Shown here: positions 6,440 through 56,934 of the stretch, in pieces
How positions within the stretch are numbered: position 1 is the stretch's first letter
Layout of the letters: the number at the start of each line of letters is the position of its first letter
Assembly: GCA_951406725.2 (NCBI GenBank)
Contig: OX597842.1
Location: forward strand, 3,100,001-3,164,000
Length of the DNA stretch: 64,000 nt
Direction: 5' to 3'
DNA from: Octopus vulgaris
Taxonomy: Eukaryota
Notes under the pieces: generated by a model
The model's database searches: none
What the model was told of the DNA's origin: nothing
Seen by the model: the letters and a program-made list of their open reading frames with translations, nothing else
Made by a program: the position numbers and the translations under genes

Positions 6440-6914
6440 ATTATTTACATTATTTACATTTTACGGATATTTACGGATATTTCCTCGTCTTGTTTGTTGT
6501 TAACACAACGTTTCGGCTGATATACCCTCCACCCTTCATCAGGTGTCTTGGGGAAATTTCGAACCTGGGTTCTCATTCCTAAAGTATTTTTTCAATGGTA
6601 TTCTTCTTCTTCTTCTTATTATTATTATTTTTTCAATGGTATTCTTCTTCTTCTTCTTCTTCTTATTATTATTTTTTCAATGGTATTCTTCTTCTTCTTC
6701 TTGTTATTATTATTATTATTCTGGTCACCGCTTGGAATCGAACTCGGAATCTTGGGGTTAGTAGCCCGCGCTCTTAATCACTTTGCCACTGGAGGGTATC
6801 TCAGCCGAAACGTTGTGATAACAACAAACGAGATGAGGACAAATATCCGTCGAATGTAAATAATGTAAATAATGTAAATAATGTACACAATTCCTCATCT
6901 CTTAAATACAGAAC
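6440..6914 (-). mobile_element. tRNA-headed element carrying a hammerhead ribozyme, with an inverted copy of its 3' end
   Basis: Minus-strand head 6788-6721 has an A-box (TGGCAAAGTGA) and B-box (GAGTTCGATTCC). Hammerhead at 6547-6502. Segment 6440-6531 is repeated inverted at 6789-6883. Confidence 0.7.
6502..6547 (-). ncRNA. Minimal type-I hammerhead ribozyme motif
   Basis: GACAC-CTGATGA-A-GGGTGG/TCAGCC-GAAA-CGTT-GTGTT; intact core; palindromic AACGTT helix III. Confidence 0.75.
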
Positions 6915-52492: not shown

Positions 52493-52565
<73 letters not shown>

Positions 52566-52614
52566 CAATAGTAAATCTCTGAACGAGGTATAAACAGTAA
52601 CTGCACGACAATGT

Positions 52615-52997
52615 GAGGTATACAAGCCATCTCAATATGGCTAACCACTAAGGGTGGGTGTTACTGTAGCTTGTAGCCCCAGGAGATTATCGTCTCCAGC
52701 TGGCTTTAGGCACACTTTCTGTGCCCTTATGGTATTTGCAAAGGGAGAAGAATTTGCATTGGGACCTCCCTTCATCGAAAACTGGTGATTGTCGTACGCT
52801 GAGGACAGGTCAAAACCTAGAAACTGCAGTCCGTGTGTATCACTTAGGTTGACGAGGGAAGCGTGACCTCCTTTTGCAAATACCATAAGGGCACAGAAAG
52901 TGTGCCTAAAGCCAGCTGGAGACGATGATCTCCTGGGGCTACAAGCTACAGTAACACCCACCCTTAGTGGTTAGCCATATTGATATGGCTAGTATAC

Positions 52998-53000
<3 letters not shown>
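52615..53000. mobile_element. 386-bp foldback element (133-bp arms) with a hammerhead ribozyme in the loop
   Basis: Arms 52615-52747 and 52868-53000 differ at about 4 positions by eye; the element lies between (TA)n and (CA)/(TA)n. Confidence 0.85.
52794..52836 (+). ncRNA. Minimal type-I hammerhead ribozyme motif
   Basis: GTACG-CTGAGGA-C-AGGT-CAAA-ACCT-A-GAAA-CTGCAG-TC-CGTGT; intact core; GUC cleavage triplet; palindromic helix III. Confidence 0.78.
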
Positions 53001-53055
<55 letters not shown>

Positions 53056-53056
53056 C

Positions 53057-53103
<47 letters not shown>

Positions 53104-53149
53104 CATATATATATATAAACTTTGTGGACTTGCAACTCTTGTCCATACT

Positions 53150-54203: not shown

Positions 54204-55174
54204 CACCAAACACTTTGCGGTTGAACAAGACCCATTTTCTCCTTAGAAGCCTGTCATTCTACATTAATAAGTACTAAAAACAGAAATGAATATTTTTCAT
54301 TGAATTTAATAAGGTACCTCACCTTCGATGTTGGCTTTACACGTCTTCTTCGTGGAAAGATTTTAAGCAATTAACAAACCGTACTTCATTACGTCTGCTC
54401 ATAAATGGAAAAGGAATGCTTCGGTTGTTTCCGGATCGTTCCGGTTTAAACAGTGTTTGTTAAATACCCATATGTGTGTGTGTGGAAGTGTGGGGGGAGA
54501 CGAAGAAAGGAAGAAAGAAAGAGAGAGAGAGAGGGAGAGAGAAAGAGAGGGCTAAGAGACGAGAGTGAAAGCATATGAAAGACAAAGACGGAAAAAGAGT
54601 GAGAAGTTGTGCTCACGTAAACCTGTGCGAGTGTGTATGACTGTGTGTGTATGTGTGTGTATGTGTGTGTGTGACTCTGTATGTGTGTGTGTGTGTGTAT
54701 GTGATGAACAGCAGAATGCGTCTTACCATGCCTCTACCACTTAGCTACCTCCCTCACGTCAATCCTCCTCCTCCTTCCACTCACCAAACGTAGTCCACGC
54801 GTCCATTACAGTTTTTATAAGTCATAAGATGAGAAATGCATTCGACAGATAAGGGAGATTTAGCTGTTGTTTCTATCTAGTCTAGCAACCATGTAGAGGT
54901 CTTCTTCGTTGGCTCATTTGTCACACAGGTCCAGTTGATCCGATCAACGAAACAGCCTGCTCATGAAACCATAGTGCAATCAACCCCACAGACACATGGT
55001 CCCTTAACGTAGTTCACGGGGAAATTCAGTGTGACACAGAGTGGGACAAGGCCGACCCCTTTGAAGTACAGGTAGTCCATATTTTTGCTGGCGAAGCAGA
55101 CTGGAGCACGGACTTTCGAGAATCGAACTCATGATTCGTGAGTCGAATAACCTAAGCACTTGACCACATTTTTA

Positions 55175-55535: not shown

Positions 55536-55685
55536 ACAGGCTTCCCACAGTTTCCGTCAATCAAATTCATTCACAAAGCTTTGGTTAACTAGAGACTATA
55601 GTAGAAGACACTTGCCCAAGTTGCCATGCAGTGAGACTGTACCCGGAACCATGTGGTTAGGGAGGCAAGCTTCTTACCACACAGG
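55175..55685. mobile_element. Family A SINE fragments (+ then -)
   Basis: Family motifs. Confidence 0.85.
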
Positions 55686-55704
55686 CTCATCCATACAAAG
55701 ACAA

Positions 55705-56310
55705 TAGGTGGGATTTGAGGGAGATTTGGCTGCTATTTCTACCAGGTCTAGCTACCATGTAGAGGTCTCCTTCATTGGCTCATACATGCATACATATATA
55801 CATACGTATGTAGGTGGGATTTGAGGGTGATTTTGCTGCTATTTCTACCAGGTCTAGCTAACATGTAGAGGTCTCCTTCATTGGCTCATACATGCATACA
55901 TATATACATACGTATGTAGGTGGGATTTGAGGGTGATTTTGGCTGCTATTTCTACCAGGTCTAGCTACCATGTAGAGGTCTCCTTCATTGGCTCATACAT
56001 GCATACATATATACATACGTATGTAGGTGGGATTTGAGGGTGATTTTGCTGCTATTTCTACCAGGTCTAGCTACCATGTAGAGGTCTCCTTCATTGGCTC
56101 ATACATGCATACATATATACATACGGATGTAGGTGGGATTTGAGGGTGATTTTGCTGCTATTTCTACCAGGTCTAGCTACCATGTAGAGATCTCCTTCAT
56201 TGGCTCATACATGCATACATATATACATACGTATGTAGGTTGGATTTGAGGGTGATTTGGCTGCTGATTCTAGCAGATCTGGCTACCATGTAGAGATTTC
56301 CTTCGTTGGT
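55705..56310 (+). repeat. Young 106-bp minisatellite (5 full copies plus 1 partial)
   Basis: Units start at 55705, 55811, 55917, 56024, 56130 and 56236 and are nearly identical. Confidence 0.95.
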
Positions 56311-56934
56311 GTTATATTGTGACTTAAATGATTTGAGAGAGGTGTGTGTATATGATTGTATTGTATGTGTCTATGTAGATGTGTGTGTGTGTTTCTCTGT
56401 GTGTGTTTGTGTGTGAGAGGGTTCGGAGTAGAGTGTGGGCACGTCGGTAGAGTTAGGGTGGGGGGCCAATGGAATGAGGGTGGGGGAGCAGGCGGGGTTT
56501 ATGGAGAGGTTGAACGTGAATCCCTGGAAAAGATACGCGGAAATGAATAATTAAAACGCTGAATGATCAAAAGACATATCGAGGAGGGGCAGTGGTGGTG
56601 GTGCCGAGGGTGGTGGTGGTGGTGGTGGAGGTGGTGGTGGTGGTGGTGGTGGTGGTGGTGGTGACGGTGGTGATGGTGGTGGTGGTGAGTTTAGTGGAAT
56701 GATGTTGATGATGGTGGTGGTGGTGGTGGTAGCTTTGTTGTTGAAGTGACATCTCTGGTCAAACTAGTAGTAGTAGTAGCGGTGGTGGTGATGGTGGTTT
56801 TGGTTGTAGTAGTAGTAGTACTAGTTGCTGTAGAAGTAGTTGTAGTTTAAGTAGTAGTGGTCATGAAATATTTGTGGTGGTGGTGGTGGTGGTGGTTGAA
56901 ATAGTGGTGTTGTGGTTGTGTAATCTTTGTAGTA

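Follow-up and report, generated by a model that had tools for sequence, protein, structure and literature searches.

The closest described systems are the metazoan non-LTR retrozymes and the endonuclease-bearing Penelope-like elements (PLEs). A recent study makes the case that metazoan non-LTR retrozymes derive from PLEs and are non-autonomous (Li, Clavereau and Pollet 2026, bioRxiv 10.64898/2026.07.22.740005), and the retrozyme-Penelope link has so far been argued from co-occurrence and pLTR similarity. Retrozyme hammerheads of the canonical layout cleave best as dimers (PMC7229834), and the G10.1-C11.1 pair is described as highly conserved in hammerheads (PMC4209133). Published PLE insertions show an inverted 5'-truncated copy and often a tail at one end (PMC8557442), with target-site duplications of 8-10 bp (PMC3846280). 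The purified PLE protein of Anolis cuts and extends both strands in vitro, from two internal start points between which the tail lies (PMC11167929). The present study reveals a dispersed 355-nt octopus family that is, by the testable criteria, a metazoan non-LTR retrozyme, and probably a non-autonomous Penelope-like element.

The window analysed here is a 64,000-nt stretch of the Octopus vulgaris genome. It contains two inverted-repeat arms of 133 nt each (52615-52747 and 52868-53000), 97% complementary with four mismatches and spaced 120 nt apart. The predicted fold of these 386 nt has an energy of -290.8 kcal/mol (z -26.5), matched by none of 100 shuffles. The near-perfect 133-bp arms of the sequence-only reading are thus borne out. 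Its limits for the hairpin are right at the right edge (53000) and wrong at the left, where the family sequence continues for about 52 nt, to 52563. The recent origin that it drew from the near-identity of the arms does not follow, as a 3% arm difference is ordinary in the family (median arm identity of 96% in 50 insertions). The features of the element are collected in Table 1, in which monomer position 1 is the first base after the cleavage site. The window element is incomplete, with monomer positions ~222-271 missing, and over its 253-nt right arm the closest other copy is 96.0% identical. Its flanks contain no resolvable target duplication; any duplication would be hidden in the (TA)n tract. 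An (AC)n run likewise follows site A in three other loci (L097, L108 and L135), and the (AC)n of the right flank, we infer, probably grew by slippage from the terminal CACA of the element.

Table 1. Positions of the features of the element, its flanks and its hammerhead motif in the window
Feature	Position	Strand	Evidence or remark
Entire element, formed of two 5'-truncated monomer (355-nt) pieces, head to head	52563-53000	.	BLAST against the natural partial tandem L028: 52747-52563 minus, 52748-53000 plus
Inverted arm, monomer ~37-221, ends at outer site B	52563-52747	-	92-95% identity to L028 units
Tail of ~50 nt, reaching from outer site A to outer site B, inverted arm only	52563-52614	-	Missing from the right arm
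Direct arm, monomer 272-355 then 1-169, ends at outer site A	52748-53000	+	Best other copies 95-96% identical
Inversion junction, 0-1 nt microhomology	52747-52748	.	Position varies between copies
Segment common to both arms, monomer 37-169, pairs with 52615-52747 as 133-bp stem	52868-53000	+	
(TA)n target tract, left flank	52497-52562	.	Sequence
Right flank, (TC)3(AC)n then TA-rich repeat	53001-53117	.	Sequence
Type I hammerhead motif, predicted cleavage after C52831	52785-52843	+	Sequence; family conservation and covariation
Helix I, 6 bp	52793-52798 with 52832-52837	+	
Outer helix GUGAU/AUCAC, extends helix I	52785-52789 with 52839-52843	+	
Hammerhead core CUGAGGA	52799-52805	+	
Helix II, loop UCAAAA, C-A at base (52806/52819)	52806-52819	+	
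GAAA core segment	52820-52823	+	
Helix III, 2 bp, palindromic UGCA loop		+	Part of the hammerhead motif
GUC site	last base C52831	+	

The element had been read as a rod capped by an intact GUC-site hammerhead. The motif, its core, the GUC site and the GUGAU/AUCAC extension are all present. The word intact is too strong, since a C-A replaces the usual G10.1-C11.1, helix III has only 2 bp and no Rfam hammerhead family was matched, even with the 141-nt loop at an E value of 10; the hammerhead call therefore rests on the pattern and its covariation. The inner pairing that extends helix I is part of the monomer's own fold and is not special to the window copy. Nor is the self-cleaving apex retained: the predicted fold of the full hairpin does not contain the hammerhead (pair probabilities of 0.06-0.10 for helix I and 0 for helix III), and forcing the ribozyme fold inside it costs 9.3 kcal/mol, by nearest-neighbour energies that ignore tertiary contacts. 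In the predicted fold of a transcript of the right arm only, the outer helix and helix II do form. With its single hammerhead motif and no tandem partner, the window copy is likely inert.

The extent of the family was assessed by motif searches of the 2.8-Gb genome. A 29-nt motif at the ribozyme has 697 exact matches and a 32-nt motif near the 3' end has 1,116, with none for either reversed control. Because 21 of 60 independently chosen segments match the 32-nt motif exactly, and 79 insertions correspond to 128 segments, the family can be roughly estimated to comprise some 3,200 segments, spread over some 2,000 insertions. The monomer length is given by natural tandems, partial ones included, which have a 355-nt period. 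Several subfamilies (80-97% identity) keep this same layout, and no RT-like ORF is tied to the monomer in 90 loci. Adjacent hammerhead pairs number 24 genome-wide and include one 10-mer, one trimer and 13 dimers. The sole long array found (L214; G000:C4:13.6208-13.6244 Mb) has 10 hammerheads in units of 355-357 nt that differ at 0-5 positions; the core is U3-A8 with G10.1-C11.1, loop II has 7 nt in nine of the 10 units, and a 12-bp repeat, seen by eye, flanks the array. It is a candidate source locus or a later local expansion. No account of the 355-nt family, or of the counted pairing of ends described below, was found in the main texts searched, which cover few subscription papers; Repbase-style libraries and the supplements of PMC13282606 and PMC7229834 may list the family, and the main text of a recent octopus repeat annotation does not contain the words ribozyme or retrozyme (PMC13282606).

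Comparison of 83 hammerhead motifs from the family shows a conserved core (A9 in 83, A6 in 82 and G5 in 79), whereas position 7 is free to vary (C 30, A 28, U 15, G 10). Positions 3 and 8 are occupied by C3-G8 in 59 motifs and by U3-A8 in 16, and helix II exhibits A-U/G-C swaps. Among the 73 distinct rows, 91.0% of the cells pair, compared to 87.5% after shuffling, and two-sided changes occur in 46 cells, compared to 12.2±2.7 in shuffled rows and at most 13 in slid controls. These covariation counts reflect few inherited events, with U3-A8 and G10.1-C11.1 linked in one subfamily, and the selection of copies partly fixed the 3' half of the core, on the GAAAC...GUC side. Judged as a sequence motif, the type I hammerhead covaries across the family and is conserved under selection, even though 62 of the 83, including the window copy, carry C-A instead of G10.1-C11.1. 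Considering this substitution together with the C at position 4 of 31 of the 83 hammerheads, ribozyme activity of the family may be low or lost. No support was obtained for regarding the C-A lineage as older or dead: the arms diverge by 4.07% in 30 C-A insertions and by 3.95% in eight G-C insertions, so that the two lineages spread at about the same time.

The architecture of the insertions was assessed by mapping 153 loci to the unchanged natural stretch of L028, which yielded 132 distinct insertions. The loci comprise the best hairpin matches, ribozyme-motif matches, and 3'-motif matches from contig C1 and the start of contig C2; the 3'-motif matches provide an unselected set of 79 insertions, i.e., one without selection for hairpin or ribozyme. 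The 132 insertions are composed of 83 simple head-to-head inversions, four complex ones that also start on the minus and end on the plus strand, 44 single pieces and one two-piece direct copy; 87 are thus head-to-head inverted. Their inner ends are scattered over the whole monomer, and almost every copy has its own junction and arm lengths. The outer ends cluster at two fixed points about 50 nt apart, A (~166-176) and, 3' of it, B (~213-226 as mapped). The true B lies at ~218-221, since the last few bases of the L028 reference stretch belong to its TA flank. The stop rate, where well sampled, is highest at monomer positions 31-50 (19 of 73), at the foot of the ribozyme-bearing stem. Of 82 junctions, 21 could be resolved for microhomology (19 with 1-5 nt and two with none, where chance predicts 56% with none) and 61 could not.

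The two outer ends are combined in a strikingly regular manner. Of the 87 inversions, 67 pair A with B, five pair A with A, none pairs B with B, and 15 have one end off site. Hence, A+B, with the ~50-nt tail on one arm only, accounts for 67 of the 72 inversions with both ends on site, as opposed to 35.8 expected by random pairing (p = 2e-15), and for 44 of 45 in the unselected set (p = 1e-12). Among the exceptions to this rule are two near-identical duplicated loci with a complex centre (L023 and L024) and one locus with inverted flanks (L150), which suggests later rearrangement. A non-repetitive target duplication of 8-15 bp accompanies 38 of the 87 inversions (mode 12 bp, in 15 of the 38); the other 49 comprise 22 with duplications in simple repeats and 27 without a duplication. 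Such duplications occur in five of 45 non-inverted copies and in 11 of 600 shuffled flank pairs. The target duplications are AT-rich, and (TA)5 is present on at least one flank of 44 of the 132 insertions, a count that carries no genome background. The two arms of an insertion agree at 614 of 659 subfamily-variable sites (random expectation, 311 disagreements; background difference, 4.1%), which indicates that both derive from the same or a sibling RNA.

The window hairpin is one insertion of this dispersed, non-coding hammerhead-motif family, and its arms were likely made as it inserted, by a reverse transcriptase/endonuclease of Penelope-like type that acted in trans. The endonuclease would make a staggered cut of ~12 nt in AT-rich DNA, and each 3' end of the cut would then serve as primer for copying retrozyme RNA of a single subfamily, with the start at A for one end and at B for the other. 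The two cDNAs would terminate early, often at the foot of the ribozyme-bearing stem, and be joined by their inner ends. The template would be longer than one cleaved monomer, i.e., a circle or an uncleaved tandem transcript. A linear cleaved monomer was rejected as the main template, since of 50 arms extending as far as the cleavage site 47 continue past it and only three stop there; the rarity of tandem source loci favours a circular template without proving it. The ribozyme would serve the monomer, through dimer cleavage of tandem RNA and circle formation, rather than the window copy. In assembled contigs from four of 24 listed runs (three guessed to be RNA, one unlabelled), which cannot show ends, strand or circles, family-like pieces lie along the stretch and none is listed across 52747/52748, a result that speaks neither for nor against expression.

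A more specific version of this account, to which we assign about equal weight for and against, is coordinated two-ended integration: the two nicks of a single ~12-nt cut would be primed at different fixed sites, A and B, with template RNA from a single subfamily (plausibly a single circle held by an RT dimer), and the lineage lacking G10.1-C11.1 would have spread as well as the canonical one. If this is true, the one-sided tail is an obligatory mark of the mechanism and simple self-priming is ruled out. For the PLE reaction in vitro, ribozyme cleavage is reported to be dispensable; no difference in start site between the strands is reported, a point against the mechanism proposed here (PMC11167929).

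Self-priming, whether by snap-back and copying of one cDNA or by an antisense transcript that primes itself, has been put forward for the Penelope elements of rotifers on the basis of palindromes found where inverted copies join (PMC3846280). In the octopus family several junctions likewise fall on short palindromes (e.g., at monomer ~42), and in 47 of 50 insertions the arms are more alike than the median other copy. Among the 67 A+B inversions, the A arm is nested in the B arm in 13, as self-priming would allow, the inner ends lie within 20 nt of each other in 11, and 13 overlap an upstream tail; the last two groups, 24 in all, fit either model. In the other 30, the window copy included, the A arm has sequence that B lacks and the B arm has the tail that A lacks, so that neither arm can be a copy of the other and simple snap-back is contradicted. 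It also leaves unexplained why target duplications are found with inversions and rarely with single arms. We therefore regard self-priming as an unlikely origin of the inverted arm. It is quite unlikely that an undiscovered autonomous PLE left these pieces as truncated 3' ends (pLTRs), with the 355-nt monomer unable to propagate itself. Every feature is indeed one that PLE ends show, short pLTR pieces commonly occur solo (PMC4209133), and the autonomous families compared number two. Such ends would, however, lead into an ORF, whereas long copies wrap into the previous monomer (up to 680 nt, and in the 10-mer); the 5' flanks of the 44 non-inverted copies have no upstream sequence in common except unrelated repeats, and it is the 355-nt layout that the several subfamilies keep.

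The sequence-only reading suggested the 386-nt rod with its apical ribozyme as the biological unit, and such a rod could be a selected viroid-like or regulatory RNA, given its very stable predicted fold, the canonical core letters in the window copy and the fact that about 60% of the insertions are hairpins. This is very unlikely. The rod is not fixed, junction and arm lengths vary almost from copy to copy, and three of the four arm mismatches look private to the window copy. The ribozyme fold is disfavoured within the rod, and a search of the minus strand of the window element yielded no hammerhead core, leaving no ribozyme of opposite polarity. Among 48 unselected simple inversions, the loop holds exactly one whole hammerhead in 14, two in five and none in 29, so that a ribozyme-capped rod is one outcome of where the two truncations fell. 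The unit is instead the 355-nt monomer, the long arms being made at insertion and differing by copy. We give hardly any credence to a MITE, i.e., a non-autonomous DNA transposon with long terminal inverted repeats. The element is short, non-coding, present in many copies and ends in inverted repeats; the variable arms already refute this reading, as neither the terminal inverted repeats nor the length is fixed. Moreover, the ends are asymmetric with a one-sided tail, the inner structure varies, one third of the copies lack an inversion, permuted tandem copies exist, and the duplications are of ~12 bp with a spread of 8-15. The suggestion that the element is related to retrozymes and could be mistaken for a plain MITE was therefore apt, and arm length, which had been proposed as a means of telling a Penelope-type inversion from a MITE, does vary.

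In the search for a helper element, two abundant families were compared with the monomer, and no homologous autonomous element was found. The first (L184-L189 and L154-L183, reached via an RT fragment near L070) is young and abundant, with near-identical copies and (TA)n targets. It encodes an RT (Pfam RVT_1 above cut-off) together with a GIY-YIG domain at the C terminus that scores below cut-off, and its C-X4-C-X2-C linker makes it Neptune-like by the description in PMC8557442. It bears its own U3-A8 hammerhead in the 3' region, and both of the two inverted pairs examined have one plain arm and one arm with a 48-nt tail, as the retrozyme inversions do. It has no sequence in common with the 355-nt monomer; a resemblance of the form CGUG(A/C/G)GU...AUUUAUU between its tail and that of the retrozyme was noted by eye. 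The second, very abundant family (L246-L275, reached via an endonuclease-like ORF near L066) has a C-terminal GIY-YIG-like ORF and (TA)n-flanked ends. No hammerhead motif common to the 3' regions of 30 of its copies was found, and it too has no sequence in common with the monomer.

Several other repeats were encountered. The window contains two more hammerhead-like cores, at 6542 (minus strand) and 1385 (plus strand), in other repeat families, the former in a minimal PLE layout; a tandem of six ~106-nt units occupies 55599-56364, with kindred units standing alone at 54852 and 57604. A further, unrelated partial tandem (L184:1793-2413) repeats every 364 nt and includes a hammerhead-like motif in which position 4 is C; it probably represents another retrozyme family. 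A supposed sister family of the retrozyme turned out to be a Helitron-like carrier of ~395 bp (L216-L245, e.g., G000:C1:151388; also L098:1-390), which holds a captured ~60-nt retrozyme piece (monomer 112-173) between CTCTAAAAAT repeats. In 30 copies read, this carrier starts with A|TC and finishes with a short hairpin followed by CTAG|T. Exact matches to its junction motif number 3,920; a retrozyme insertion in a Helitron master has become more abundant than the retrozyme.

Taken singly, the window hairpin is ordinary, one of about a thousand such by-products, and the value of the analysis lies in the counted A+B rule. Through its tail, inversion and ~12-bp duplication, the family provides evidence at the level of insertions for the movement of a retrozyme by Penelope-like machinery. 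Because its copies are small and numerous, they furnish counts that separate the published self-priming idea from priming at both nicks. The family predicts one A start and one B start per target, which the existing in vitro PLE system could show. It also seeds the genome with near-perfect hairpins of 70-500 bp, which repeat finders could file as MITEs and which would form double-stranded RNA if transcribed.

As in the metazoan retrozymes, the monomer is non-coding and within 150-450 bp, being nearest in size to the 350-390-bp retrozymes of mussel and the 330/350-bp retrozymes of axolotl (Cervera and de la Pena 2020, PMC7229834; bioRxiv 10.64898/2026.07.22.740005). A conserved type I hammerhead occurs in each unit, and at least two consecutive hammerheads occur in the family, though not in the window copy. 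Helix I of 6 bp, helix II of four positions, helix III of 2 bp with a palindromic tetraloop, the self-paired monomer, target-site duplications of more than 4 bp and the presence of PLEs in the same genome are further common features (same sources). A precedent for a mismatched pair at the foot of helix II is the U-U of axolotl HHR_Amex2, which still cleaves, and better as a dimer, although here the pair is C-A. Unlike the metazoan retrozymes defined by tandem arrays, nearly all of the octopus copies are dispersed and fall short of two monomers in length, and most are inverted head to head. Circles and cleavage have been demonstrated for known metazoan retrozymes, whereas the octopus family is known here from its sequence; homology to a PLE pLTR is reported for the Xenopus retrozyme, as opposed to none here to the two abundant PLE families compared. 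With MITEs and viroid-like rods the element shares the long inverted repeat and a highly paired RNA, if transcribed; in contrast to both, it has no fixed termini or length, a motif of one polarity, and the marks of retrotransposition.

The likeness to the endonuclease-bearing PLEs (Arkhipova 2013, PMC3846280; Craig 2021, PMC8557442; Frangieh 2024, PMC11167929) concerns the insertions themselves: a head-to-head inverted, 5'-truncated copy at the 5' end with a variable junction, partial tandems, a tail, often at one end only, bounded by two fixed 3' ends, target-site duplications of about 8-15 bp, AT-rich and (TA)n targets, and two fixed RT starts downstream of the hammerhead with no pile-up of ends at the ribozyme site. 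Unlike these elements, the octopus family has no RT + GIY-YIG ORF between pLTRs, either within or joined to the element, and its tail is about 50 nt compared to 30-40 nt. In the PLE literature consulted the tail is described as optional or often one-sided, whereas the octopus family displays a near-strict pairing of one A end with one B end.
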